Below are positions 2,883-36,046 of a stretch of 64,000 bases of DNA, piece by piece. A program made the position numbers and the translations under genes. The stretch spans positions 1,810,773-1,874,772 of the forward strand of contig CBDBBV010000002.1 of the NCBI GenBank assembly GCA_965203265.1, in the 5' to 3' direction. Each line of letters starts with the position of its first letter. The stretch's first letter is position 1. The notes beneath the pieces were generated by a model. The model searched no databases and had not been told where the DNA came from. It saw only the letters and a program-made list of their open reading frames with translations. The DNA is from Candidatus Poriferihabitaceae bacterium. GTDB taxonomy: Bacteria > Pseudomonadota > Gammaproteobacteria > Arenicellales > Poriferihabitantaceae.

Positions 2883-3254
2883 ATGGCCGCCATACCCGAT
2901 TTTACCAATGCCGAAATCGCCGCCGTGCGCGGGATGTTGGTTCAGTGTTGCCGTCGGGATGTGTTGATTCATCTTGCCGATGGCGAATTTTCCCTTGAAG
3001 ACGATGGCGCGGTCGGCTGCCCGACTGTGTATTGGAATGAGCGGGGCGCCAATTTCATCGTCTTCAAATGTGCGGCGGATCGCTACCGCGCGCGGTTTTT
3101 CTATACGCCGCACGAGCACTTCGGCAGTGGAATCGGCGAGTGCGACGATCCCGGCGAATGCGTGCGCGCGGTGCTGCAGGCCCAAGCGGAGCATGAGCGC
3201 GCGAGCGAGCGGGACGCCGAATCGCGGCGGGTGACTGCCCGAACCCATCCATGA
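2883..3254 (+). CDS. hypothetical protein
   Basis: This is the in-frame ATG (MAAIPDFTNAEIAAVRG...) inside track ORF 2835..3254. It lies between tolC and pfp on the same strand. No family recognised. Confidence 0.45.
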   Translation: MAAIPDFTNAEIAAVRGMLVQCCRRDVLIHLADGEFSLEDDGAVGCPTVYWNERGANFIVFKCAADRYRARFFYTPHEHFGSGIGECDDPGECVRAVLQAQAEHERASERDAESRRVTARTHP

Positions 3255-4516
3255 GCGGCAAGCGAAACGCCTTCTACGCCCAGTCCGGCGGCGTTACCTC
3301 GGTGATCAACGCCAGCGCCGCCGGAGTGATCGAAACGGCGCGGCGGCATCGGCGGCGCATCGGCGCACTCTACGCCGGGCGAGACGGCATCATCGGCGCC
3401 CTCACCGAGAGCTTGATCGACACCACCCAAGAAAGCACCGCGACCATCCGCAAACTGCGCCATACACCGGCCGGCGCCTTCGGCTCGTGCCGCTACAAGT
3501 TGCGCAGTTTGGAGGACAGTCGGCGCGAGTACGAGCGCCTGATCGAGGTGTTTTCGGCGCACGACATCGGCTATTTCCTGTACAACGGCGGCGGCGACTC
3601 GGCGGACACCTGCCTCAAGATCTCCCAACTGTCGCGCAGCATGGGCTACCCGCTGCAGGCGATTCACATCCCCAAGACCGTGGATAACGATCTGGCGGTA
3701 ACCGACAATTGTCCCGGATTCGGCTCGGTGGCGAAGTACATCGCCGTTTCCACTCGGGAGGCCAGTTTCGATGTGGCTTCCATGGCGCGCACTTCCACTC
3801 GGGTGTTCGTGCTCGAGGTCATGGGCCGCCACGCCGGATGGATCGCGGCGGCGGGCGCCATGGCGTCGGACGATCTCGTCAAGATTCCGGTGATCGTGTT
3901 GTTCCCTGAGATTCCGTTCGATCGCGCAAAATTTCTGGCGGAGGTGGAGCGCAAGGTGCAAACCCACGGCTATGTCTCGGTGGTGGTGTCCGAAGGGGTG
4001 CGCCACGCGGACGGCGGCTTCCTCTCCGAGCAGGGCTTGGTGGACGCCTTCGGCCACGCCCAGCTGGGCGGAGCGGCGCCGGTGGTGGCGCAGATGGTGA
4101 AGGCGGATCTGGGCTACAAGTATCACTGGGCGGTGGCGGATTATCTACAAAGATCGGCGCGGCATATCGCCTCGGCAACCGATGTGGAGCAGGCATTCGC
4201 GGTCGGGCAAGCGGCGGTGGAAATGGCCCTGGCCGGCGACAATGCGGTGATGCCGGCCATCGTGCGCGTGGGCAATCGCCCGTATCGCTGGAAGATCGCC
4301 GCCGCCGATCTGGCGGAGGTGGCCAATGTGGAGAAAAAGATGCCGCGCGATTTCATCAGCCAAGATGGTTTCGGCATCACCCGAAAATGCCGGGCGTATC
4401 TCGCGCCGCTCATGGCGGGCGAGGATTATCCGCCGTATCGCAATGGGCTGCCGGATTATGCGCGGTTGAAGAATGTGCCGGTGGTTAGGAAACTTGAGAC
4501 GGAGTTTGCGTTGTGA
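3251..4516 (+). CDS. pfp: 6-phosphofructokinase, probably pyrophosphate-dependent
   Basis: 421 aa with PFK motifs FYAQSGGVTSVINAS and PKTVDNDL. GGGDSADT has Asp where ATP-dependent PFKs have Gly (GGDGS). A membrane pyrophosphatase gene lies nearby. Confidence 0.8.
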   Translation: MSGKRNAFYAQSGGVTSVINASAAGVIETARRHRRRIGALYAGRDGIIGALTESLIDTTQESTATIRKLRHTPAGAFGSCRYKLRSLEDSRREYERLIEVFSAHDIGYFLYNGGGDSADTCLKISQLSRSMGYPLQAIHIPKTVDNDLAVTDNCPGFGSVAKYIAVSTREASFDVASMARTSTRVFVLEVMGRHAGWIAAAGAMASDDLVKIPVIVLFPEIPFDRAKFLAEVERKVQTHGYVSVVVSEGVRHADGGFLSEQGLVDAFGHAQLGGAAPVVAQMVKADLGYKYHWAVADYLQRSARHIASATDVEQAFAVGQAAVEMALAGDNAVMPAIVRVGNRPYRWKIAAADLAEVANVEKKMPRDFISQDGFGITRKCRAYLAPLMAGEDYPPYRNGLPDYARLKNVPVVRKLETEFAL

Positions 4517-4701
4517 CTTTGCAGCGGGCACGGGAATTGTTGAAGGTGCAGGTGGGTTTTGGCGGGGGGTATAACCGTCAGTCGGCCAAGTTGATACTCG
4601 ACGAGGTGGCACGCGAGCATGGGCGGGGGGCGGCGGATGAGTTGATTTTGGAGTTGGGGTTGGATGGGGTTTTTGGGTTTGAGGTTGGGGAGGGGGGTTG
4701 A
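4513..4701 (+). CDS. hypothetical small protein (62 aa)
   Basis: The GTG start overlaps the pfp stop. The N-terminal two thirds look like ordinary protein, but the C-terminus (GLDGVFGFEVGEGG) is encoded by the G-run tract, so the true end is uncertain. Confidence 0.35.
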   Translation: MTLQRARELLKVQVGFGGGYNRQSAKLILDEVAREHGRGAADELILELGLDGVFGFEVGEGG

Positions 4702-4704
4702 GGG
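4656..4704 (+). other. G-run tract (C-rich on the minus-strand transcript) at the left border of AT-rich patch 1
   Basis: G runs of 3-6 nt lie at 4656-59, 4666-69, 4675-77, 4687-90, 4692-97 and 4702-04. The tract sits directly downstream (minus sense) of the stop of the 4709..6058 gene. Confidence 0.6.
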
Positions 4705-4708
4705 TGGT

Positions 4709-6058
4709 TTAAGAAAGTTCTTTGACTTTCTGCAAAAAAGATTCTATCGCTTTTATTGTTTCCTGCACGATTTGTCTTCCAAGTTCTTTCCCCTGTTTTT
4801 CATCTGTCAGTTGTTGTACAAAATTTTCATCTTCATAGCGGAAATCATTATATTTGCAGCTCCCAAAATCTTTTGTGAGCAACCAGTACTTATTTTTACC
4901 CATACCTTCAATTTCGAGCGATACTTTACGATATTTCTGGTAAGGCTTATCCAAATCATCATATTTATCAATCCATTTTCTATTATCGGCACTCAGTTTA
5001 CTTCCATAACCATAACCACAATCATATTCTTCCTCTTCTTTTCTTATTTCTTTTCCCTCGAGAAGGGAAAAATTTAGCTGCACAGTCTGACACTCATTTT
5101 TGAAAAGTATTAACACAATAACATTTATTCCATCTCCAGCAAGAATTTTCCAACCAATTATCGACTCTTCCTTCTCGTTCCAATTTTCATACCGAACCCC
5201 AACATACTGTTTGAAAAAATCTCCATTTTCCTTAACTGCTTCACGGATATAGTTCGATAATCGATTCTTCAATTCTTTTTGAAAAAACTCAATGAAATTC
5301 TCCAAACAGGGAACCAGTTTGAAGTTTCCGTTCTTGAAAAAAGGATTGTTTTTCATAGAAAATTCCTCCAAATGAGTTAGATAAGTCTGACCAGTAAGTT
5401 TTTTCAGTAACGATTGATACTGAAACAAAATTCCCTTGATATGTGAAATGTCTGCTTCTTCTTTCTCCTTCATGCATATCGCTAACCATTTGATAATATG
5501 ATCCTTGTATGAAACCCGTAAAACTTTTTCCTTTTCAAGCCCTTCTCCAAGCATATATTCACTCGGCTCTCGTCCATCAAGCGTAAGATAAATTATCGCT
5601 ATATTTTCATCTTTATAGTTCTTTTTGGCATAGGAATAATATTTTCCAATCTGCCGTTCTTGTTCCCTTGCACCTATTTTGTTCTCAATCACAACGAATT
5701 TGTCAGCGTTTTTAATCAAAATATCTATAAACCCATCACCTGTATACGACTCTTTGGTTACTCTGAACTTAGCAAGTTCGGTTTCAGAAAATTCCCAAGT
5801 GAATTGACTCGCGTGGGTTCTCTGCAACCTCTCGAAAAATAGCCGCAAGAAAACCGTGCCTTGGATATGCGATCCATCTGGGTTCAACAAATCGGTCAAC
5901 AGGGCCGAATGCGTTTTCTCTTCATCTCTCTCCCTATCCAAAATCGAAAATATATTGAAATGCTCGCCCGTATCCCGCGCACATTCACCATATTTTTCCT
6001 TGATCAACCTGAATTGATCAAGGAAGCCTTCCAGATCACCTGTCTGTTGAATTTCCAT
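4709..6058 (-). CDS. PD-(D/E)XK nuclease family protein, paralog B, with an uncharacterised C-terminal half
   Basis: 449 aa and AT-rich. It carries the N-terminal block FNIFSIL...HSALLTDLLNP.GSH.QG and the catalytic D...ExK signature GFIDILIKNADKFVVIENK followed by QERQIGKYY. It resembles the family I recall as Pfam PDDEXK_4 (unverified). Confidence 0.75.
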   Translation of the reverse strand: MEIQQTGDLEGFLDQFRLIKEKYGECARDTGEHFNIFSILDRERDEEKTHSALLTDLLNPDGSHIQGTVFLRLFFERLQRTHASQFTWEFSETELAKFRVTKESYTGDGFIDILIKNADKFVVIENKIGAREQERQIGKYYSYAKKNYKDENIAIIYLTLDGREPSEYMLGEGLEKEKVLRVSYKDHIIKWLAICMKEKEEADISHIKGILFQYQSLLKKLTGQTYLTHLEEFSMKNNPFFKNGNFKLVPCLENFIEFFQKELKNRLSNYIREAVKENGDFFKQYVGVRYENWNEKEESIIGWKILAGDGINVIVLILFKNECQTVQLNFSLLEGKEIRKEEEEYDCGYGYGSKLSADNRKWIDKYDDLDKPYQKYRKVSLEIEGMGKNKYWLLTKDFGSCKYNDFRYEDENFVQQLTDEKQGKELGRQIVQETIKAIESFLQKVKELS

Positions 6059-8307: not shown

Positions 8308-10320
<2,013 letters not shown>

Positions 10321-10450
10321 GGAATCTACTCCTGAGATAATTGGCGGGGAAAAATCGAAGGCGGCGGACTATAGCCCCGTTGCCGCCTCGTGGCAACAGG
10401 CAGGCGGTGATGAATCGATCCGGTTTCCTTGCCGCCGCCGCGCTCGGCGG

Positions 10451-11197
10451 CTAACTGCACTTGCTCTCCCCGCAGTTGAGGCAGGTCAGGCAGTTGTCCA
10501 TTACCACCATGGCCTTGGTGTGGCATTTGCCGCACAACGACGCGCCTTCGGGGAAGACGCCTTCCTCCCCCTCGACCGGATCGGGGCTGATGGCCTGCTG
10601 TTGTTGCAGTTCCCGGCGCTTCTGATCGATCAACCGCCGTTGGTGCTCGTCGAGGGCGGGGGCGGCGATCATGCCGATCATCTGCAGGTGGGAGGCGATG
10701 GCGTCGCCGATCTCGGCAACCAGAGACGGCATGAATTTGCCGCCGCGGCGAAAGTAGCCGCCCTTCGGGTCGAACACGCTACGCAATTCCTGCACCAAGA
10801 AGGTTACATCGCCGCCCTTGCGGAATACCGCCGAGACGATCAGGGTGAGGGCGGAAATCCATTGGTAGTGATCCATGTTCTTGGAATTGATGAACATCTC
10901 GAACGGGCGGCGGCGCTCGTAGGGCGTGCCCGGATTGAGCACGATGTCGTTGATGGTGATGTAGAACGCATGCTCGGACACCGGCGTCTTGATCTTGTAA
11001 GTACTGCCCACCAGCATTTCCGGGCGCTCGACCTTTTCGTGCATGTGCGCGATGTTGTCGCCGCTCGGCTTGGGCGATTCGGCGGAGGCGGGCGGTGTTG
11101 CGGGCGGCGCGGCGGATGCGGCGGCGGCTACGTCCACTTCCGCTTCCGGCTTGACGATGTCGAAACCGATGATCTTGCGTTCGATCTTGATGCTCAT
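10451..11197 (-). CDS. nrdJb: class II (adenosylcobalamin-dependent) ribonucleotide reductase, C-terminal fragment
   Basis: 248 aa with a Cys-rich tail (CGKCHTKAMVVMDNCLTCLNCGESKCS). It starts 29 nt downstream of the large fragment, the split arrangement known from Pseudomonas. Confidence 0.75.
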   Translation of the reverse strand: MSIKIERKIIGFDIVKPEAEVDVAAAASAAPPATPPASAESPKPSGDNIAHMHEKVERPEMLVGSTYKIKTPVSEHAFYITINDIVLNPGTPYERRRPFEMFINSKNMDHYQWISALTLIVSAVFRKGGDVTFLVQELRSVFDPKGGYFRRGGKFMPSLVAEIGDAIASHLQMIGMIAAPALDEHQRRLIDQKRRELQQQQAISPDPVEGEEGVFPEGASLCGKCHTKAMVVMDNCLTCLNCGESKCS

Positions 11198-11226
11198 GTT
11201 GTTGTCTCCCGAAATGTCGGCGACGG

Positions 11227-13401
11227 CTAGAACCTGCCGTAGTAGCCTTCCTTCAAGGCGTCAAAAAGATTGGCGGCGGTATGCGTCTCGCCGTCGTATT
11301 CGATTTCCTCGTCGCCCTTGAGCTCGAGAGTACTGCCGTCGTCCAGAGCGAAGCGGTATCTGGTGTTCTCCAGATCCGCCTTCTTCACCAGCACGCCCTG
11401 AAATCGTTCCGGATTGAAACGAAAGGTGGTGCAGCCCTTGAGCCCTTTTTCCCAAGCGTATCGATAGATGTCCTGAAATTCCTCGAAGGGAAAATCGGTC
11501 GGCACGTTGGCGGTTTTCGAGATGGATGAATCGATCCACTTTTGCGCCGCGGCCTGTACATCCACATGCTGTTTCGGGGTGATGTCGGCGGCGGTGACGA
11601 AATAGTCCGGCAGAACGTTGTTCGGATCATCGGCAGCCACGCCCGCATCGGCGTTCACTAAGCGGCGATACGCCAGCAGCTCGTAGGAATACACCTCCAC
11701 CTTCTGCTTGGTTTTCTTGCCCGCCTGAATCACATTGCGGCTGTACTGGTGGGCGAAGGACGGCTCGATGCCATTGCTGACATTGTTGCCCAGCGACAGG
11801 CTGATGGTGCCGGTCGGAGCGATGGAAGTGTGGTGGGTGTAGCGGCAACCGCGCTCGGCGATGGCGTCGCGCAACGCCTGCGGAAACTGCTGCATATAGC
11901 GGCTGTAGCGGCTCATCAGCACCGCGCCCTGGACCCGGTCGCCAACCCGCCAGCCATCCTCTGCCATCTCCGGGCGGCGCGCCAGCATCTCGGTGGTTAC
12001 CGAAAATTCCTGCTCGAGAAGCGGCGCGCAGCCCTTTTCCTCGGCGAGTTTGATGCCGGTCTCCCAGCCCACCGTGGCCATCTCCCGCGCGACCCGCTCG
12101 GTGAACGCGAGGGACGCCTCGCCGCCGTAGCGCATGCGCAGCATGGTCAGCGCCGAACCCAAGCCGAGAAACCCCATGCCGTGGCGGCGCTTGTGCATGA
12201 TCTCGTCGCGCTGAGGGGAAAGGGGCAGTTCGTTCACCTCCACCACGTTGTCCAACATGCGCGAAAAGACGGCGACCACCTCGCGGTATTTCTCGAAGTT
12301 GAAACTCGCCTCGTCGGAAAACGGATTCTCCACAAACCGCGTCAGGTTGACCGAGCCGAGCAGACAGGCGCCGTAGGGCGGCAGCGGCTGCTCGCCGCAG
12401 GGGTTGGTGGCGCGGATGTTTTCGCAGAACCAGTTGTTGTTCATGGCGTTGATGCGATCGATCAGGATGAAGCCGGGCTCGGCATAGTCGTAGGTCGATT
12501 GCATGATCAGATGCCACAGGCGGCGCGCCGCCACCGAGCCGTACACCCGGCAGGCCACCTGACCGAGGTCGTTGACCACATAGTCGTCGCTGCTCGGCCA
12601 GCGGCGCCAGACGAGTTCGTGGTCGCCGCCCTCCACTTCCCGGACGGTTGCCGGAAACGACAGTTTCCACTCGGCATCGTCGCCGACCGCCTGCATGAAT
12701 TCGTCGGTGATCAGACAGGACAGGTTGAACTGGCGCAATCTCCCGTCCTCGCGCTTGGCGCGCACGAACGCCTCGATGTCCGGATGGCTGATGTCGAAGG
12801 TGCCCATCTGCGCGCCGCGCCGGCCGCCGGCGGAGGAGACGGTGAAACACATGGAATCGAAGATATCCATGAAGGACAGCGGGCCGGAAGTGTAGGCACC
12901 GGCGCCGCTGACGAAAGCGCCTCGGGGGCGCAGGGTGGAGAATTCATAGCCGATGCCGCAACCGGCCTTGAGGGTCAAGCCGGCTTCGTGCACCGAGGCC
13001 AACACGCCATCCATGGAATCCGGCAGGGTGCGCGACACGGTGCAGTTGATCGTGCTGGTGGCGGGCTTGTGGTGGCGCGCGCCGGCGTTGGCGATGATTC
13101 GCCCGGCCGGAGTGGCGCCGTTTTGCAGTGCCCAGAGGAATTTTTCATGCCAGTGCCGCTGGTTGTCTTCGCCGATTTCCACCGCCGCCAGCGCCCGCGC
13201 AACGCGCTCGAAAGTGGCATCGATATCCGCGTCCAACGGCGCGCCGTCCATGGTCTTCAGGCGATATTTCTGATCCCAGATATCGAGGGAAGTGGGTTGC
13301 AGTTCGAGCGGCGCGGCGGGCGCCTGCCGGAAAAGGCGATAGGCTGCCGCGTCGGTCTCTTTAATATCGGTGTCGCGCTGTGCGCCTGATGAATTCGGCA
13401 T
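11227..13401 (-). CDS. nrdJa: class II (adenosylcobalamin-dependent) ribonucleotide reductase, large fragment
   Basis: 724 aa with the RNR active-site block TNPCGEQPLPPYGACLLGSVNL and typical class II N-terminal regions. Confidence 0.85.
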   Translation of the reverse strand: MPNSSGAQRDTDIKETDAAAYRLFRQAPAAPLELQPTSLDIWDQKYRLKTMDGAPLDADIDATFERVARALAAVEIGEDNQRHWHEKFLWALQNGATPAGRIIANAGARHHKPATSTINCTVSRTLPDSMDGVLASVHEAGLTLKAGCGIGYEFSTLRPRGAFVSGAGAYTSGPLSFMDIFDSMCFTVSSAGGRRGAQMGTFDISHPDIEAFVRAKREDGRLRQFNLSCLITDEFMQAVGDDAEWKLSFPATVREVEGGDHELVWRRWPSSDDYVVNDLGQVACRVYGSVAARRLWHLIMQSTYDYAEPGFILIDRINAMNNNWFCENIRATNPCGEQPLPPYGACLLGSVNLTRFVENPFSDEASFNFEKYREVVAVFSRMLDNVVEVNELPLSPQRDEIMHKRRHGMGFLGLGSALTMLRMRYGGEASLAFTERVAREMATVGWETGIKLAEEKGCAPLLEQEFSVTTEMLARRPEMAEDGWRVGDRVQGAVLMSRYSRYMQQFPQALRDAIAERGCRYTHHTSIAPTGTISLSLGNNVSNGIEPSFAHQYSRNVIQAGKKTKQKVEVYSYELLAYRRLVNADAGVAADDPNNVLPDYFVTAADITPKQHVDVQAAAQKWIDSSISKTANVPTDFPFEEFQDIYRYAWEKGLKGCTTFRFNPERFQGVLVKKADLENTRYRFALDDGSTLELKGDEEIEYDGETHTAANLFDALKEGYYGRF

Positions 13402-13553
13402 GATTTTCGTGACGGTTCTGTTTGGTTCGCTCTACCCATGCCCGCCCGCTTCGGGCGCGCCGGACGCCTCCTCGAGAAACCCCCGTTTTCCCTGCCAAAC
13501 GGCTGTCTCGGCGGCAACCGGCAATCTGCGAAAATCGCTGTTTGCCTCGTTAA

Positions 13554-13569
13554 ACACCATATATTGGGG
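13554..13569 (-). promoter_or_regulatory. candidate NrdR box (proximal)
   Basis: The minus-strand 16-mer ccccaatatatggtgt matches about 13 of 16 positions of the remembered gammaproteobacterial NrdR consensus acaCwAtATaTwGtgt. It lies about 150 nt upstream of the nrdJa ATG. Confidence 0.5.
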
Positions 13570-13585
13570 TTTAAGTCGCGATAGT

Positions 13586-13604
13586 ACACCAATATGTAGG
13601 GTGT
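13586..13604 (-). promoter_or_regulatory. candidate NrdR box (distal, imperfect)
   Basis: acaccaatatgtagggtgt has palindromic acacc/ggtgt arms. Its start is offset 32 bp from the proximal box, the usual three-helical-turn tandem spacing. The core match is weaker. Confidence 0.35.
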
Positions 13605-13632
13605 TTGTCAAAACCATTTCCCGCTGTCTCAC

Positions 13633-14643
13633 TCAATCGTCCAGCGCCGACAGCACCCGCTCGGGCCGCAGTTGCCGAAGACAGTCGAGGTGGCCGAGGG
13701 GGCATTCCCGCTGGAAGCAGGGGCTGCATTTCAGGCGCAGGTTGAGGAGTTCGCAGTTGTCGCTCAGCGGCGGGGTGAATGCATCGCTGGACGAGCCGTA
13801 GATGGCGATCACGCGGCAGCCGATGGCCGCGGCGACATGCATTAGGCCGGAATCGTTGGTTACCGCACAGCGCGCCAGCGACATCAGATCGATGGCCTCG
13901 CCGAGGGTGGTGCGGCCGCTGAGATCGGCACAACGTTGTCGGCAAATTCGGTTGATGCGTTGGCAGATCGCCCGATCGTTTTGCGAGCCGAACAGCCACA
14001 CCTGCCAACCCTGCTGCAGCTGCTCCTCGGCCACTTCAGCGAAATACTCCGCCGGCCAGCGTTTGGCCGGGCCGTACTCGGCGCCGGGGCACAGCGCCAG
14101 AATCCGCGTGGTCGGCGCATCGACTTCGAGGCCGAAGCGCGCCGCGGTTTGGCTGACCAGATCCCGCTCCACCACTAGCGCCGGATGGGGAATATGTGCG
14201 CTCGGCGGCGCCGATTTCGGCAGGCCGAGGGCGACGAAACGCTGGGCATTCACCGGCAACGCCTGCCGATCGAGGAGGCGGATGTCGTTCAGCAACCCCC
14301 AGCGCTGCTCGCCGAGATAGCCGGTGCGCACGGGAATCTTCGCAAACCACGGCACCAGTGCGGATTTGAAGGAGCCCGGCAGGACGATGGCGCGGTGGAA
14401 ATTCGACCGCCTGAGCGCCCGCCCCAACTTGCGGCGCACGCTCAGGCCGAGTTGGCCGTGCCCCACGGGCAGGCGGACGGTGCCGCCGACTTCCGGCATT
14501 CGCGCCAGTATCGGCATGCTCCAGGGCGGCGCGAGTACGGTGATTTCGGCGCCCGGCTCGTCTCGCTTGAGCACCTTGAAGAGGCTCTGCGCCATGACCA
14601 TGTCGCCGACCCAGGCCGGCCCCACCACCAGAATTTTGTTCAT
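13633..14643 (-). CDS. waaF: ADP-heptose:LPS heptosyltransferase II
   Basis: 336 aa. The N-terminus MNKILVVGPAWVGDMVMAQSLFKVLK and overall GT9 layout are typical of WaaF. Confidence 0.8.
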   Translation of the reverse strand: MNKILVVGPAWVGDMVMAQSLFKVLKRDEPGAEITVLAPPWSMPILARMPEVGGTVRLPVGHGQLGLSVRRKLGRALRRSNFHRAIVLPGSFKSALVPWFAKIPVRTGYLGEQRWGLLNDIRLLDRQALPVNAQRFVALGLPKSAPPSAHIPHPALVVERDLVSQTAARFGLEVDAPTTRILALCPGAEYGPAKRWPAEYFAEVAEEQLQQGWQVWLFGSQNDRAICQRINRICRQRCADLSGRTTLGEAIDLMSLARCAVTNDSGLMHVAAAIGCRVIAIYGSSSDAFTPPLSDNCELLNLRLKCSPCFQRECPLGHLDCLRQLRPERVLSALDD

Positions 14644-28235: not shown

Positions 28236-29003
28236 TCAGTATTTGAAGCCGATGTGGAGGGCGACTATTCCGCCGCTCAGATTGTGTATGCGGATGTCTT
28301 CGAATCCGGCTTGCGCCATCATGTTTTTCAGAGTTTGTTGATCCGGATGCTTGCGGATGGACTCGACCAGATAGCGGTAACTGTGCTCATCGCCGACCAC
28401 CCGCTTGCCGAGGGCGGGGATGACGGCGAAGGACCAGCGATCGTATAGTTTTGCCAGCAGAGGCAATAGCGGCTTGGAGAATTCCAGCAGCAGCAGGCGG
28501 CCGCCGGGTCGGATTACCCGATACAACGAGGCGAGGGCGTCCTGCTTGCGGGTTACATTGCGCAGGCCGAAGGAGATGGCGGCGCAGTGGAAGCAGTCGG
28601 CGGCGAAACTCGGTTTTTCGGCGTCGCAGAGGGCGTAGCCGATGTTGCCGATGAGGCCGGCGTCGATCAGGTTGCGCCGGCCCTGAGCCAACATGGCCGC
28701 ATTGATGTCGGTGAACGCCACCAAGCCGCCCGCGCCGACCTGCCGAGCAAAGTGCTTGGCCATGTCGCCACTACCGGCGGCCACATCCAGAGCCAGATCG
28801 CCGGGGCGCAAGGCACTCTGCGAGGCGGCAAAGCGCTTCCACAGGCGATGGACGCCGAAGCTCATCAGGTCGTTCATCAGGTCGTAGCGACCGGCGACCG
28901 AGCGGAACACATCGGCGACCATGCCGGCCTTGTCGTCGGCGTCCACCGAACGAAAGCCAAAATGGGTGGTGCGCCCCCGTTCCTGACCGGCCTGCTCCGC
29001 CAT
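28236..29003 (-). CDS. ubiE: demethylmenaquinone/ubiquinone C-methyltransferase
   Basis: Start taken at MAEQAGQERGRTTHFGFRSV (29003). FRSVAGRYDLMNDLMSFGVHRLWKR and LDVAAGSGD are canonical UbiE blocks. Confidence 0.9.
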   Translation of the reverse strand: MAEQAGQERGRTTHFGFRSVDADDKAGMVADVFRSVAGRYDLMNDLMSFGVHRLWKRFAASQSALRPGDLALDVAAGSGDMAKHFARQVGAGGLVAFTDINAAMLAQGRRNLIDAGLIGNIGYALCDAEKPSFAADCFHCAAISFGLRNVTRKQDALASLYRVIRPGGRLLLLEFSKPLLPLLAKLYDRWSFAVIPALGKRVVGDEHSYRYLVESIRKHPDQQTLKNMMAQAGFEDIRIHNLSGGIVALHIGFKY

Positions 29004-29019
29004 GACCACCACCCCGCCG

Positions 29020-29385
29020 TCAGGAATCCGCCGCGCGCTCGTGCCCGGCCTCGCGCAGCTGTTCGAGATAACGCCGCCAGTTCTCCGCCTGATTCCTGCC
29101 GAGGGAATGGAGCGTATCCCAAGAATAAATGCCGGTATCGTGGCCGTCATCGAACACCGGCTTGATGGCGTAATTGCCGATCGGCTCGATTTTGTCGATA
29201 TTGACCTCCTCCTTGCCGACCTGCAACACGGCTTGACCGGGGCCATGCCCTTGCACCTCGGCCGAGGGAGAATGCACCCGCAGGTATTCGCAAGTCATCT
29301 CGTAGGATGTGCCGTCGTCGAAGGATACCGTGAGGATTCTGGCTCTGCGGTTGAGGTTGATTTCGGTGGGGGTGGGTTTGCTCAT
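29020..29385 (-). CDS. DUF971 (gamma-butyrobetaine hydroxylase N-terminal-like) protein
   Basis: Start taken at MSKPTPTEINL (29385) within track ORF 29020..29547. FDDGTSYEMTCEYLRVHSPSAEV and FDDGHDTGIYSWDTL are typical of the family. Confidence 0.7.
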   Translation of the reverse strand: MSKPTPTEINLNRRARILTVSFDDGTSYEMTCEYLRVHSPSAEVQGHGPGQAVLQVGKEEVNIDKIEPIGNYAIKPVFDDGHDTGIYSWDTLHSLGRNQAENWRRYLEQLREAGHERAADS

Positions 29386-29568
29386 TGGTTTGGCCGGTTG
29401 TGTCGATTTTACAGATTTTCCGATAGTTGTTGTATTTCCGCTTGCGTGTGGTGCGGCTCTTGCATTTCTATGGCTTTCCACGCGCTTATGTAGGAAATTT
29501 TGTCGATGAGTTTTCCTAGTTGTTTGGCGGTTAATTTTGGGAATCATACCGATAACTTGACAAGGAAT

Positions 29569-29733
29569 TCACTGTTTTTTCTCTTTGATTTTGACTTTTC
29601 CATCCTTACCTACTCGCATAACGAACTTCCTTTCCAGACCTTTATTCGTAGGTACGGGTTCTCTCCCGTGCTCTGCTTTGCCCATGCCCAGCAACGCCTT
29701 CGCCGCTTTATCTAGTTTCTTTCTACTAGTCAT
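29569..29733 (-). CDS. 54-aa basic small ORF downstream of methyltransferase-HNH gene 1 (sORF1)
   Basis: My own translation, since it falls below the track length cutoff: MTSRKKLDKAAKALLGMGKAEHGREPVPTNKGLERKFVMRVGKDGKVKIKEKKQ. Its ATG shares one nt with the upstream TGA. The first 31 codons are duplicated at 31021-31113. Confidence 0.45.
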   Translation of the reverse strand: MTSRKKLDKAAKALLGMGKAEHGREPVPTNKGLERKFVMRVGKDGKVKIKEKKQ

Positions 29734-30956
29734 CACACTAACATTTGCAAGCGCGTTTTCAAATAGTCCATACCTCTATCGCCCTTTATACGATTACATG
29801 AACCACACAGCAATTGAAGGTTCTCCAAGTGATCGGTTCCGCCCTTCTTGCGTGATATTATATGATCTACTTCCAAATTCCTATGATTGAACTCTGTATT
29901 ACATCCAGCGCATTTCCCGTATTGCTCACCAAATAGAAACTTCTTGTTCTCTGGCGAATTATACGCCCGCAACTTACCTAAATCAGTGCGTTTCGGTATA
30001 TCCGTCCTATGCGTTATATCCCTGAATATACCCTGCGCGTCCTTTATACGGCTAACTACTAATTCTGAAGCCTTACTCGATATATCTATCCCTACCCAGT
30101 TTCGTTGTAAATAATCAGCCGCAACGCAAGTAGTCGCGCATCCGCAAAATGGATCCAGTACTACATCGCCTTCGTTGCTTGACGCTCTGATTATTCGTGA
30201 TAGAAGTTTCAAAGGCTTCTGCGTAGGGTAACCTGTACGCTCTTTTGATAAAGAATTCAAATAAGGTATATCCCACCAATCATTACATATCATCCCTTCA
30301 TCAGGATAATATGTTCTCTTTTTACCGGCATCAATCCGAATCCTACATCTGCGACCTTTATCATCTACTTGCTTATAATGACTATCCAAGTATTTCTGAC
30401 TAACGGGTATGCGATAATCTCCCCAATAAAACTTATCCGATTTAGTATAAAGAAATATCAAATCATGCTTCTTGGCGAAAAACTTCTTCGCTCTACCAGA
30501 AGTAGAATAGCACCATACAATCTCGTTTCTGAAATACTTGCGTCCGAAAACAGCGTCCATTACCAATTTCAAATAATGACTCATGGTCGGATCACAATGC
30601 AAATAGATTGAACCAGTAGGTTTCAACAATCTTTTCATCTCTAATATCCTTGCCGCCATATAAACCAAATACGATTTATCGCTCTTGGTCATTGCCGCTA
30701 ACAACACCCGATAAAGAACCGGATGTTTGTTCTCTATAAGATTTATCCATTCAACATCTACCTCCGACAACGACCATGTATCCTTGAACTCAGCACCAGC
30801 CGCTTTACTACCTATTGGCGCTGCGTAATTAGCATTTGAATTAAATGGCGGATCCAAATATATCAAGTCAACAGATTCACTATTCATCCCTCGCATAATG
30901 TACAAACAATCTCCCGTCCATATCGTCTTGTTCGCCCAGTTTTGTTTCTTACTCAT
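29733..30956 (-). CDS. beta-class DNA amino-methyltransferase fused to a C-terminal HNH nuclease (copy 1)
   Basis: Start taken at MSKKQNW (30956) within track ORF 29733..30989; 407 aa. It has DPPF (motif IV), GYPTQKP (motif X), VLDPFCGCATT (motif I), then CAGC...EVDHIISRKKGGTDHLENLQLLCGSCNRIKG (HNH). AT-rich. Confidence 0.85.
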   Translation of the reverse strand: MSKKQNWANKTIWTGDCLYIMRGMNSESVDLIYLDPPFNSNANYAAPIGSKAAGAEFKDTWSLSEVDVEWINLIENKHPVLYRVLLAAMTKSDKSYLVYMAARILEMKRLLKPTGSIYLHCDPTMSHYLKLVMDAVFGRKYFRNEIVWCYSTSGRAKKFFAKKHDLIFLYTKSDKFYWGDYRIPVSQKYLDSHYKQVDDKGRRCRIRIDAGKKRTYYPDEGMICNDWWDIPYLNSLSKERTGYPTQKPLKLLSRIIRASSNEGDVVLDPFCGCATTCVAADYLQRNWVGIDISSKASELVVSRIKDAQGIFRDITHRTDIPKRTDLGKLRAYNSPENKKFLFGEQYGKCAGCNTEFNHRNLEVDHIISRKKGGTDHLENLQLLCGSCNRIKGDRGMDYLKTRLQMLV

Positions 30957-31113
30957 TTCTTGCTCCCCCCTCCGCCAACCACCCGGCAACCTGCTCGGCG
31001 TAATAGGTCAATACCAGATCTTTATTCGTAGGTACGGGTTCGCTCCTGTGCTCTGCTTTGCCCATGCCCAGCAACGCCTTCGCCGCTTTATCTAGTTTCT
31101 TTCTACTAGTCAT
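30949..31113 (-). CDS. chimeric 54-aa small ORF: 5' part of sORF fused to a copy of the hemB 3' end (sORF2)
   Basis: My own translation: [54 protein letters not shown]. The residues after position 34 repeat the HemB C-terminus. It overlaps both neighbouring genes. Whether it is expressed is unknown. Confidence 0.3.
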   Translation of the reverse strand: MTSRKKLDKAAKALLGMGKAEHRSEPVPTNKDLVLTYYAEQVAGWLAEGGARNE

Positions 31114-32291
31114 CACACTAACATTTGCAAGCGTGTTTTCAAATAGTCCATACCTCTATCGCCCTTTATACGATTACATGAACCGCATAACAACTGTAGG
31201 TTTTCCAAGTGATCGGTTCCGCCTTTCTTTCGTGAAATTATATGATCTACTTCTAAATTTCGTGATTCGAAATGCGTCCCGCAACCCGCGCAATTCCCGT
31301 CTTGCTCTCCATATAGTATCTTTCGATTTGCTGGAGAATTGTAGGCCGGAAGATTTCCGAGATCGGTTCTCTTCGGTATATCCGTCCTATGCGTTATATC
31401 CCTGAATATACCCTGCGCGTCCTTTATACGGCTAACTACTAATTCCGAAGCCTTATTCGATATATCTATCCCTACCCAATTACGCTGTAAATAATCCGCC
31501 GCAACGCAAGTAGTTGCGCATCCGCAAAATGGATCCAGTACTACATCGCCTTCATTGCTTGACGCCTTGATCACCCTCCCTAACAACGCCAATGGCTTTT
31601 GTGTGGGATAACCCGTGCGTTCTTTATCCATAGTATTCAACGCCGCCAATGTTATTACATCATCCGGCGTCTTACCTCTAGGCGGTTCTTTCCCTTGTTT
31701 TTTGTAACGCCAAGTCGTCATACCACTCTCATATGGAATCAGTATATCGTCCCTTCTAAAAACACCTTTACCGGAAATTACATACCAAAGCAATATATCA
31801 TGCGACTTAGCCCATTGATATTTACCGCGAGAAGCATTTTTATAGTACCAAACAACTTCGTTCCTGAAATTTTTGCGTCCAAAAATAGCATCCATCACTA
31901 ATTTCAAGTAATGACTCATAGTCGGATCACAATGCAAATAGATTGAACCAGTAGGTTTCAACAACCTTTTCATCTCTAATATCCTTGCCGCCATATAAAC
32001 CAAATACGATTTATCGCTCTTGGCTATTGCCGCTAACAACACACGATAAAGGGATGGATATTTGTTCTCAATAAGATTTATCCATTCAACATCTACCTCA
32101 TCCAGCGTCCAAGTATCCTTGAACTCCGCACCAGCCGCTTTACTACCTATCGGTGCGGCATAATTCGCGTTTGAATTGAACGGCGGATCCAAATATATCA
32201 AATCAACAGATTCCGAATTCATCCCCCGCATAATATACAAACAATCCCCCGTCCATATAGTCTTGTTTGCCCAGTTTTGTTTCTTGCTCAT
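31113..32291 (-). CDS. beta-class DNA amino-methyltransferase fused to a C-terminal HNH nuclease (copy 2)
   Basis: Start taken at MSKKQNW (32291) within track ORF 31113..32336; 392 aa. It has the same motif set as copy 1 but a different central block. Its ATG lies 1 nt after the hemB stop. Confidence 0.85.
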   Translation of the reverse strand: MSKKQNWANKTIWTGDCLYIMRGMNSESVDLIYLDPPFNSNANYAAPIGSKAAGAEFKDTWTLDEVDVEWINLIENKYPSLYRVLLAAIAKSDKSYLVYMAARILEMKRLLKPTGSIYLHCDPTMSHYLKLVMDAIFGRKNFRNEVVWYYKNASRGKYQWAKSHDILLWYVISGKGVFRRDDILIPYESGMTTWRYKKQGKEPPRGKTPDDVITLAALNTMDKERTGYPTQKPLALLGRVIKASSNEGDVVLDPFCGCATTCVAADYLQRNWVGIDISNKASELVVSRIKDAQGIFRDITHRTDIPKRTDLGNLPAYNSPANRKILYGEQDGNCAGCGTHFESRNLEVDHIISRKKGGTDHLENLQLLCGSCNRIKGDRGMDYLKTRLQMLV

Positions 32292-32292
32292 T

Positions 32293-33330
<1,038 letters not shown>

Positions 33331-34179: not shown

Positions 34180-34456
34180 GGGTCGTGCGGGCTTCCCCGC
34201 GGAAAAATTTGAACCGCAACCCTACTCGTTGTGGGCAATCAGGTCAACCGCCTGCACGATGCCGATACATTCGGGCTGTGGGTGGTTTTCGGCGATTCGG
34301 GATTGGTGGAGGCGCGCCGCCGGCCCTTTTCCGGGCAAGATTTGTGGACGGGGATGGGGGATCGGGCGGCGTTTTGGCTTGATGTGCTCTCGGGGCGATA
34401 GCCGAGGATTTGGAATCGTGGTTTTTTCTTGGGTCTGTCCGGTTCGGCTTCGATTG

Positions 34457-35197
34457 CTATGTTTTGCGCGCGAGAAATCGGCAACGAACATAATCTGCAA
34501 ACCACTCCCCGTTTTCATCTTTCAATTTTACGGCGGCCCTATCCGCAACATGGGCAATGAAATCGGCACGCTCGCGAACTGGTATATCTTTCAGAAAAGA
34601 ATCAGCAAAAGTTTCCAACCATCCGACAATACCCGTAGGTAATTTGGTCGGGCGATCAAAGACTTCGAATTCAACGATGTGAAAACCGTGTTGTTCCAAT
34701 TTGGATCGATATGCCGAACCGCTCGGAAAGTACCATGGATTGTAATCATCGCCATTCAGGCTCAACTCGTTCAACTGCGCATAAATCGCGGAAACCACTG
34801 CGCCAACATTGTTTTCGGCACCGAATTCGGCACAAAATCGCCCGCCTGCTTTGATTCTGGCGTACACATTTCGAATTACCGCATCGGCATCTTTCATCCA
34901 ATGCAGCGCGGCATTGGAAAACACCGCATCGAATTCATCATCGATGGATATGGATTGGGCATCGACAACCCGCGCATCAATGCCTTTATCCCTTGCCGCC
35001 GCAACCATTTCCCCGCTGGTGTCTATGCCGATCACCGAACAACCAATGGAGGCAATTTTTGCCGTCAACCGGCCATCGCCACAGCCGACATCCAGAATTT
35101 TTTCTTCGGGGACAGGAGAGAGAAGATCGAGCAACTTCTCGCCCAATTCGGCAACGTAACCGGCGTGCCTGCCATATTTGTCAACTTCCCACTGCAT
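34457..35197 (-). CDS. class I SAM-dependent methyltransferase
   Basis: 246 aa with motif I ILDVGCGDGRLT. GC is visibly lower than in the flanking genes. Confidence 0.75.
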   Translation of the reverse strand: MQWEVDKYGRHAGYVAELGEKLLDLLSPVPEEKILDVGCGDGRLTAKIASIGCSVIGIDTSGEMVAAARDKGIDARVVDAQSISIDDEFDAVFSNAALHWMKDADAVIRNVYARIKAGGRFCAEFGAENNVGAVVSAIYAQLNELSLNGDDYNPWYFPSGSAYRSKLEQHGFHIVEFEVFDRPTKLPTGIVGWLETFADSFLKDIPVRERADFIAHVADRAAVKLKDENGEWFADYVRCRFLARKT

Positions 35198-35209
35198 TGC
35201 CGGCCAGCT

Positions 35210-36046
35210 TTATCGAAGGCCGTGGGCAAGGGCGCTCCAGTCGAATTTCGGGTCGCCGCCGGCGAGGAACCAGGGGTTGAGGATGTCCGCCTTGTTGTAG
35301 CGCAACGGCACTCCGCACAGGGTGGTCATGCTGCCTCCCGCCGATTCCAGTACGCAATGCGCCGCCGCGGTGTCCCATTCCGAGGTGGGGCCCAATCTCG
35401 GATAGATGTCCGCCAACCCCTCCGCCACCAAGCAGATTTTCAGGGAGCTGCCCATGCCGGTAACTTCCACCTCGTCGGCTTCGTCGGCAAGACGCGCGCG
35501 GTAGGCTTCGACCGCGGCACCGGCGTGGGAGCGGCTGGACACCATGATGGCCTTCGCGCGCTCGAATTTCTTCACGCGGATGGGCGTGGCCTTCCCATCC
35601 GCGCCGGATTTGAACGCCCCCACTCCGGCAGCAGCATAGTGGCTGACGCCCTTGGCCGGTGCGTGCACCACGCCGAGCACCGCGCGACCGCCCTCGATGA
35701 GCGCGATGTTGACGGTGAATTCATCGTTGCGCTTGACGAATTCCCGCGTGCCGTCCAGCGGATCCACCAACCAAAATCTCCGCCACGCGCGCCGCTGGGC
35801 GAAAGTGCTCGCATCGGATTCCTCGGACAACAGCGGAGTCTGCGGGTCGAGGCGCTGCAGCCGCTCGTGGATGAGGCGGTGGGCGCGGCGATCGGCTTGG
35901 GTGAGCGGCGAACCGTCCCGCTTGTGCTCGACTTGGAACGATCCCGCATACACATCGAGAATTTCCCGGCCGGCGGCGATGGCAATATCGAGTACCTGCC
36001 GCAGCTGGGCGGTCGGGGATGGCGCGGTTTCGGGGTTTCGGTTCAT
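35210..36046 (-). CDS. cysQ: 3'(2'),5'-bisphosphate nucleotidase
   Basis: Start taken at MNRNPETAP (36046) within track ORF 35210..36262. Inositol monophosphatase-family motifs WLVDPLDGTREF and GSSLKICLVAEG are present. Confidence 0.85.
   Translation of the reverse strand: MNRNPETAPSPTAQLRQVLDIAIAAGREILDVYAGSFQVEHKRDGSPLTQADRRAHRLIHERLQRLDPQTPLLSEESDASTFAQRRAWRRFWLVDPLDGTREFVKRNDEFTVNIALIEGGRAVLGVVHAPAKGVSHYAAAGVGAFKSGADGKATPIRVKKFERAKAIMVSSRSHAGAAVEAYRARLADEADEVEVTGMGSSLKICLVAEGLADIYPRLGPTSEWDTAAAHCVLESAGGSMTTLCGVPLRYNKADILNPWFLAGGDPKFDWSALAHGLR

Follow-up and report, generated by a model that had tools for sequence, protein, structure and literature searches.

A remnant of hemB between two methyltransferase-HNH alleles in a sponge symbiont genome, probably a scar of allele stacking

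The hemB-ubiE region described here lies in a 64,000-nt stretch of DNA (the window) from a metagenome-assembled genome (MAG) of a Ca. Poriferihabitaceae (Arenicellales) sponge symbiont, with a genome of 2.3 Mb. Two genes, MT1 and MT2, each encoding a methyltransferase (MTase) with an HNH nuclease domain, are found between hemB and DUF971, and between these two lies a displaced copy of the 3' end of hemB. In brief, the order is hemB, MT2, a truncated small open reading frame (sORF), the hemB-tail remnant, MT1, a full-length sORF, a spacer, DUF971 and ubiE, all on the minus strand (Table 1). The repeat unit is 1,335-1,380 nt long. We suggest that the hemB remnant is probably the scar of a recombination event in which one allele was stacked onto another at a hotspot for restriction and defence genes.

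The start codon of MT2 is located 1 nt past the hemB stop, and the ATG of the full-length sORF overlaps the stop of MT1. The two MTase-HNH genes and the sORFs are the only ORFs between hemB and DUF971, and neither the ORF list nor Pfam gave an integrase or transposase in the hemB-ubiE region. The MTase and HNH domains are fused within a single gene, in which the HNH domain is the putative restriction partner. The nearest solved structures noted for these proteins are M.RsrI, M.MboIIA and CcrM. The cargo has a GC content of about 37-47% vs about 65% for the host background. A scan of the cassette for promoters and terminators gave no more matches than were found in shuffled sequence.

Table 1. 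Features of the hemB-ubiE region, in window coordinates
Feature	Position	Strand	Basis
hemB (porphobilinogen synthase), upstream core flank	32293..33321	-	Pfam ALAD, E 4e-132
Resident 57-nt hemB tail (53 nt + TGA + A), still joined to hemB	32292..32348	-	Alignment
MT2, predicted beta-class N6/N4 DNA methyltransferase with C-terminal HNH nuclease, 392 aa	31113..32291	-	Pfam N6_N4_Mtase 2.7e-43, HNH 9e-15
Chimeric 54-aa ORF	30949..31113	-	Six-frame ORF list
Illegitimate joint, sORF (31014 upward) against hemB -53 (31013 downward)	31013..31014	.	Four-way alignment with single-copy alleles
Displaced hemB tail remnant (53 nt + AGA + A)	30957..31013	-	Alignment
MT1, second MTase-HNH allele, 407 aa	29733..30956	-	Pfam; mosaic alignment
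Full-length sORF, 54 aa, Lys-rich	29569..29733	-	ORF list; comparison of alleles
Low-GC (about 39%) cassette spacer before DUF971, 183 nt	29386..29568	-	GC; comparison with L055
DUF971 (GBBH-like_N) gene, downstream core flank	29020..29385	-	Pfam 1.6e-30; hemB-DUF971-ubiE synteny in other genera
ubiE, core gene	28236..29003	-	Pfam 1e-76

The original prediction, made from the letters of the window, held that the last 50 nt of hemB recur downstream with a changed stop codon. This is correct: positions 32296-32345 recur at 30961-31010 with 49/50 identity, and the hemB stop TGA (32295-32293) reads AGA in the repeated copy. Chance cannot account for a repeat of 50 nt with one mismatch, and the 2.3-Mb genome holds only the expected further copies of the repeated DNA. 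The hemB-derived stretch was refined to 53 nt, the mutated stop and 1 nt, together 57 nt. The head-to-tail geometry proposed earlier stands, but the unit starts at hemB -53 and its end is moved from about codon 31 to about codon 33 of the sORF. The junction is an in-frame fusion as predicted, and its position, placed at about 31011-31015, could be refined to 31014|31013. Single-copy sORFs of related strains read ...TNKDLERK, which assigns D and L at the joint to the sORF and not to hemB. The joint falls after sORF codon 33 plus 1 nt, with a microhomology of 0-1 nt, none of it usable.

The six-frame list contains the chimeric 54-aa ORF with exactly the sequence that had been given (ATG start); it is 55 aa if started from a GTG at 31116. 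It is made up of sORF codons 1-33, the hemB remnant in its native frame and then RNE, and it stops 8 nt inside MT1. The ORF is called as a gene in the source genome only. An exact search of JGI metagenome contigs found neither the joint sequence nor the sequence spanning MTase stop and sORF start. The last codons of hemB (GAG GGG GGA GCA) would give a GGAG Shine-Dalgarno sequence 6 nt 5' of the first cargo ATG, and the remnant retains this predicted ribosome-binding site 6 nt ahead of the MT1 ATG. The C-terminal EGGA codons of hemB were also considered as cassette-borne, which was rejected, as in the related strain L055 these codons stand before an unrelated cargo gene.

The sORF looks like a real gene. 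It is kept behind MT1, MT2 and a third allele, MT3, described below, and its dN/dS is about 0.23 against the copy of strain L057. It has no family match in Pfam, NCBIfam, PHROGs or PADLOC, and no relatives of it were found adjoining distant MTase-HNH homologues. We rejected native intergenic DNA as an explanation for the spacer that follows it, since nothing is conserved 5' of the DUF971 ATG among congeners.

An alignment of MT1 and MT2 revealed a mosaic. The N-terminal blocks are about 89% (89.1%) identical at the nucleotide level and the motif I region is near-identical, whereas the central target-recognition blocks are unrelated and differ by 45 nt in length. The N-terminal part of the HNH region is divergent, and the 3' end together with the 5' part of the sORF is about 99% identical. 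As single-copy comparators we used two metagenome scaffolds, from strains with core genes about 94-96% identical to the window. At the same site, L055/L059 carry hemB, a single MT2-type gene and a full sORF, and L057 carries hemB, the single allele MT3 and a full sORF. MT3 consists of the N-terminal block of MT1, a target-recognition block of its own and the HNH segment of MT2. The 57-nt repeat is single in relatives without the insert: each of L057 and L056 (a Logan contig from the L055 sample) has a single hemB tail and a single cassette on a short contig (4.2 and 1.5 kb, respectively). L055 has one cassette directly behind hemB, yet a second hemB tail of 295 nt further downstream.

Nucleotide identities to these strains differ between the parts of the locus. 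The core genes adk, hemB, DUF971 and ubiE are 93.9-96.4% identical to those of L055/L059 (hemB 96.4% vs L055). Against L055, identity is 98.4% for MT2 (vs the allele of that strain) and 99.6% for the 3' part of the sORF with the spacer. For the N-terminal block of MT1, identity is 97.8% with the L057 allele and 89.1% with MT2. The remnant is 54/57 identical to the resident hemB tail, and 54/57 and 55/57 identical to the two hemB tails of L055, the higher value being that of the second tail; at the two synonymous sites separating the tails, the remnant carries the L055 state. Because MT2 is nearer L055, the N-terminal block of MT1 is nearer L057 and the remnant tail fits foreign tails equally well, MT1 and MT2 are, judged by sequence, not each other's closest relatives, and their lineages circulate as single copies. 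We conclude from these comparisons that the population holds alternative MTase-HNH and sORF cassettes (MT1, MT2, MT3), differing mainly in the target-recognition block. MT1 itself is a singleton cluster, seen in the source genome only. A pattern scan of a collection of genome contigs with the MT1 protein gave one distant Chloroflexi locus and nothing else.

A simple head-to-tail duplication, the first explanation offered in the original prediction, does not agree with these data. The copies are not mutual closest relatives but different allelic lineages with unrelated target-recognition blocks, each found as a single copy at the same site elsewhere. In a more elaborate version, slipped or unequal recombination between sister chromosomes would first have duplicated the hemB tail, the MTase-HNH gene and the sORF 5' part in tandem and in situ. 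The N-terminal, target-recognition and HNH blocks of one copy would then have been replaced through homologous recombination with foreign alleles. This version would account for the 3' quarter of the gene and the sORF 5' part being about 99% identical between the copies, and for the sORF 5' parts agreeing at three positions where L055 differs; MT3, with its shuffled blocks, indicates that block replacement does occur. It needs at least two events where one suffices, and the remnant tail is no nearer to the resident tail than to foreign tails. Moreover, scars in L059, G006 and G002, described below, join completely unrelated cargos, which cannot be duplicates. We regard a duplication in situ as a rather unlikely origin of the tandem.

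The original prediction had proposed to look for the empty site in related genomes, and it was recovered in other genera of the family, where DUF971-ubiE lies about 36-200 nt past hemB. Among the congeners, hemB has a readable downstream region in eight, and in seven of these the spacer holds 1.2-5.5 kb of low-GC cargo. In the eighth, a search of about 8 kb downstream of hemB gave no DUF971. One further congener with a hemB match was left out, as its hemB is at a contig end. The cargo of the congeners encodes type II MTases, a GmrSD-like protein, HNH and type IV nucleases, a PDC-M33A-like ATPase, and a Dcm-like together with a Vsr-like protein, both of the latter labels being read from sequence. 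In all congeners read, the cargo points the same way as the operon, island B of G006 being the one exception. No conserved sequence was found between the hemB stop and the DUF971 ATG among the congeners. In Ca. Poriferihabitaceae, hemB-DUF971 is a hotspot for predicted restriction and defence genes.

In the congeners L042, L043, L045, L049 and L055, unrelated cargo genes begin on or 1 nt past the stop codon of hemB, or terminate at the start codon of DUF971, with the codons overlapping as ATGA. By this arrangement, the hotspot cargo seems to join the hemB-ubiE operon in a translational chain. L059 harbors a four-gene cargo (8714-13644) without good family assignment, a candidate defence system. 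It encodes a 424-aa protein with weak SspD/BrxP-like matches, a 643-aa GHKL ATPase like PADLOC PDC-M33A (E 8e-26), and two proteins of 287 and 288 aa without family matches. Another local duplication within the hotspot is seen in L046 (G006), where adjacent HNH-domain paralogues of 269 and 238 aa (flipped coordinates 2923-3732 and 3971-4687) have the N-terminal motif SQDEWILCLEVYLRHRGRLPK in common.

Four other scars in relatives duplicate the tail of a core gene, over about 27, 70, 295 and 331 nt, and their breakpoints differ in every case. In L059, hemB is followed by MT2, the sORF, the spacer and DUF971 minus about its last 25 nt, which runs in frame into the final 295 nt of hemB. After this joint come the four cargo genes and then intact DUF971-ubiE-ubiJ-ubiB. 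The L059/L055 joint lies within CTGCGCGA..CCG, an 11/13-nt microhomology. In G006, hemB is followed by genes for a GmrSD-like and two HNH proteins and by DUF971 codons 1-17, which meet hemB at about -70 within a shared 8-nt microhomology, AAACGCGC. An ORF, an MTase gene and DUF971 follow.

The remaining two scars are located at a second hotspot, between hdrA-like and hdrC-like genes (names read from sequence, not family-tested), which is occupied by MTase-HNH genes in three congeners (L153 G002, L152 G011 and L154 G006). In G002 the upstream-gene tail is duplicated over 331 nt with 99.4% identity (L153, G002:C3:1283000-1293000, 2460-2790 and 4515-4845). These repeats flank 1.7 kb of cargo with 41% GC, the first codons of the downstream gene are found at the joint, the microhomology is about 4 nt, and the displaced cargo is an MTase-HNH gene. 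In G011 a 27-nt tail remnant precedes the MTase-HNH gene.

A fragment of the downstream flank is thus kept at the joint in three of the four parallel scars (L059, G006 and G002), and the same three have a microhomology of 4-13 nt. As fragments of both flanks meet at these joints, the partners must have been two alleles of one locus. The fusion ORF is in frame at three of four such joints (the window, L059 and G002, not G006), which is not significant (P about 0.11).

The second explanation in the original prediction was two successive insertions aimed at the same target, the 50-mer being an attachment or homing site. Its spirit, two acquisitions at one place, agrees with our results, whereas a fixed site does not, given the variable breakpoints. 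It should be noted that several features could suggest a specific attachment or homing site at the hemB 3' end, into which the cassette was inserted by its own HNH nuclease or a site-specific recombinase, the target being duplicated or carried along. Both genes have an HNH domain, three alleles occupy the identical place 1 nt past the hemB stop, and MTase-HNH genes of the family are often wedged between conserved operon genes. The free-standing homing genes of phages (seg and mob of T4-like phages) are similarly placed, as solo nuclease genes that are co-oriented and tightly packed between conserved genes.

However, the tail lengths vary (27, 57, 70, 295 and 331 nt), the breakpoints of the partners are in different genes, and three joints fall in 4-13-nt microhomologies. 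Cargo lacking any HNH gene leaves equal scars, and we found neither a linked recombinase nor a constant crossover point. Homologues do not share one target: more than 30 of them, in the family and elsewhere, are at unrelated loci, and no flanking direct repeats were seen around those inspected. The original prediction had itself named such loci without host 3'-end duplications as speaking against HNH-driven homing. Furthermore, repair of a double-strand break, the route of classical homing, does not duplicate the target, and homing is tied to a single site for each gene. Insertion at a specific site is, in our judgement, very improbable.

Since the genome is a MAG, an assembler could in principle have concatenated two strain haplotypes, one with MT1 and one with MT2. 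Strains that are related and carry other alleles do occur together in related samples of sponge metagenomes, MT1 and the chimeric ORF were met in no assembly but the source one, and the joint is absent from the JGI contigs. The joint, however, is a novel blunt fusion without a shared k-mer, which mis-traversal of an assembly graph should not make, and like structures were seen in four further assemblies that are independent of it, among them chromosomes in a single contig and a scaffold built from short reads. An assembly artefact is therefore unlikely, and we give it the least credence of the explanations considered here.

Based on these observations, we consider it probable that the hemB remnant is a scar of allele stacking at the hotspot by illegitimate recombination. 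DNA carrying hemB tail-MT1-sORF-spacer-DUF971 would have recombined with a chromosome carrying hemB-MT2-sORF-spacer-DUF971. On the right side the exchange would have been homologous, in the common sORF, spacer and DUF971 sequence, for which the near identity of the sORF 3' part and spacer to L055 offers a possible anchor. On the left side, hemB -53 of one partner would have been end-joined illegitimately to sORF codon 33 of the other, the breakpoints lying in the sORF and in hemB because both alleles share the sORF. We infer that the process was homology-facilitated illegitimate recombination (HFIR) of incoming DNA or, equivalently, an unequal illegitimate crossover between alleles. The outcome would be additive, with the incoming allele added and the resident one kept, and this account fixes neither MT1 nor MT2 as the resident. 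The displaced allele would keep 57 nt of hemB, and with them the GGAG that it needs as a ribosome-binding site. Only joints upstream of this GGAG would keep MT1 translatable, since the retained tail holds it just before the MT1 ATG. The chimeric ORF would be a by-product, at most a translational relay bringing ribosomes to the MT1 start. Such a relay is a mere suggestion, as the excess of in-frame joints is not significant.

Several points weigh against allele stacking as described here. The joint in the window is without microhomology, unlike those of three parallel scars, and the tandem is known from one assembly alone. We found no strain with MT1 only. The variants shared by the two sORF 5' parts point to some later gene conversion, which is likely, or to an in situ component. 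ComEC and DprA are present in the genome; these are near-universal and no demonstration of competence.

Insertion of restriction-modification (R-M) genes with long target duplication is reportedly a known phenomenon, said to go back to work by Nobusato and colleagues in 2000. Furuta, Abe and Kobayashi (2010; PMC2853133) described such R-M insertions with repeats of more than 30 bp (range 46 to about 420 bp), inserts below 20 kb and no mobility genes. The repeat often overlaps the 3' end of a gene, most cases are from naturally competent species, and allelic substitution and varied target-recognition domains occur at such loci (Furuta et al. 2010; PMC2853133). The locus in the window resembles this class in being a small putative R-M unit of less than 20 kb without transposase or integrase, flanked by direct repeats above 30 bp (57 nt) that are single in insert-free genomes. 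Repeat lengths vary here as well (27-331 nt), and allelic substitution and target-recognition diversity are likewise found at the same loci. Unlike in the published class, the site already held a related allele, so that two alleles are stacked. Also, three parallel scars keep a fragment of the downstream flank, which names the partners as alleles of one locus, a point left open in the published class. The restriction function of the HNH domain remains putative here.

Homology-facilitated illegitimate recombination is reportedly known from work by de Vries and Wackernagel (2002), Prudhomme and colleagues (2002) and Meier and Wackernagel (2003). It combines one-sided homology with an illegitimate joint on the other side, often at a few bases of microhomology, and the window would have the same layout, except that its joint is without microhomology. 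HFIR has been invoked for type VI secretion system (T6SS) immunity arrays, in which older modules are displaced downstream, and an analogous displacement of Rhs C-termini was cited (Kirchberger et al. 2017; PMC5361080). As in the T6SS, Rhs and contact-dependent inhibition (CDI) arrays, the process in the window would be additive, and the older module would be displaced downstream with a 3'-end remnant of the conserved upstream gene. In contrast to these arrays, the cargo consists of predicted restriction and defence genes and not of toxin-immunity pairs, and transformation is putative only in these uncultured symbionts. The MTase-HNH proteins are also similar to type IIC/IIG R-M enzymes, with methyltransferase and nuclease in one chain and alleles that differ by replacement of the recognition block. 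The latter enzymes have an N-terminal PD-(D/E)XK nuclease and a gamma-class MTase, whereas those in the window have a predicted beta-class (PF01555) MTase and a C-terminal HNH domain.

The MTase-HNH proteins belong to a very large family, with at least 8,000 homologues at E <= 1e-20; identity is 62-77% for the best 120. The query gave 26 local matches in the 2.3-Mb genome, mostly to the methyltransferase part. Two further long matches to the MTase region in the source genome are ORFs of 468 and 509 aa with 50-53% identity, and the 468-aa ORF has a match to the HNH region too. In L151 (G066:C1:2405530-2409723) an MTase-HNH homologue is located between sufB-like and sufC-like genes, as read from ORF ends and not family-tested. 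Other homologues lie within conserved operons with gaps of 0-150 nt. In L051 the two arms of a 30-nt inverted repeat (29/30), at 2978-3007 and 5685-5714, enclose a transposase gene of IS1595 type, an MTase-HNH gene whose identity to MT1 is 72%, and a 60-aa ORF. Possibly, a transposon carries this copy of the family.

Elsewhere in the window, about 950 nt of lower-GC DNA (46-52%) is located at 34255-35210, between adk and a cysQ-like gene. It contains an ORF of 246 aa (34457-35197, minus strand), read from its sequence as a putative class I S-adenosylmethionine-dependent methyltransferase. This segment is absent from strain L055, where the flanks abut (L055 3061/3068).

The structure in the window is neither a new kind of element nor a new site-specific system; it is a known kind of event. 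What it adds to the known cases is the survival of fragments of both flanks in three of the parallel scars. The junction and the four parallel scars taken together would provide a concrete recombination model for R-M insertions with long target duplication, whose mechanism is still open. We speculate, with considerable doubt, that allele stacking by illegitimate recombination could be a main route by which these sponge symbionts build their defence islands. If so, selection would keep only those joints that preserve the upstream tail, the carrier of the ribosome-binding site of the displaced cargo, and would also favour an in-frame relay ORF. In a stronger variant, the MTase-HNH nuclease itself would provoke the initiating breaks. 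For the symbiont, the junction would show base by base how a reduced genome can gain a second restriction specificity while retaining the first, with no mobile-element machinery.

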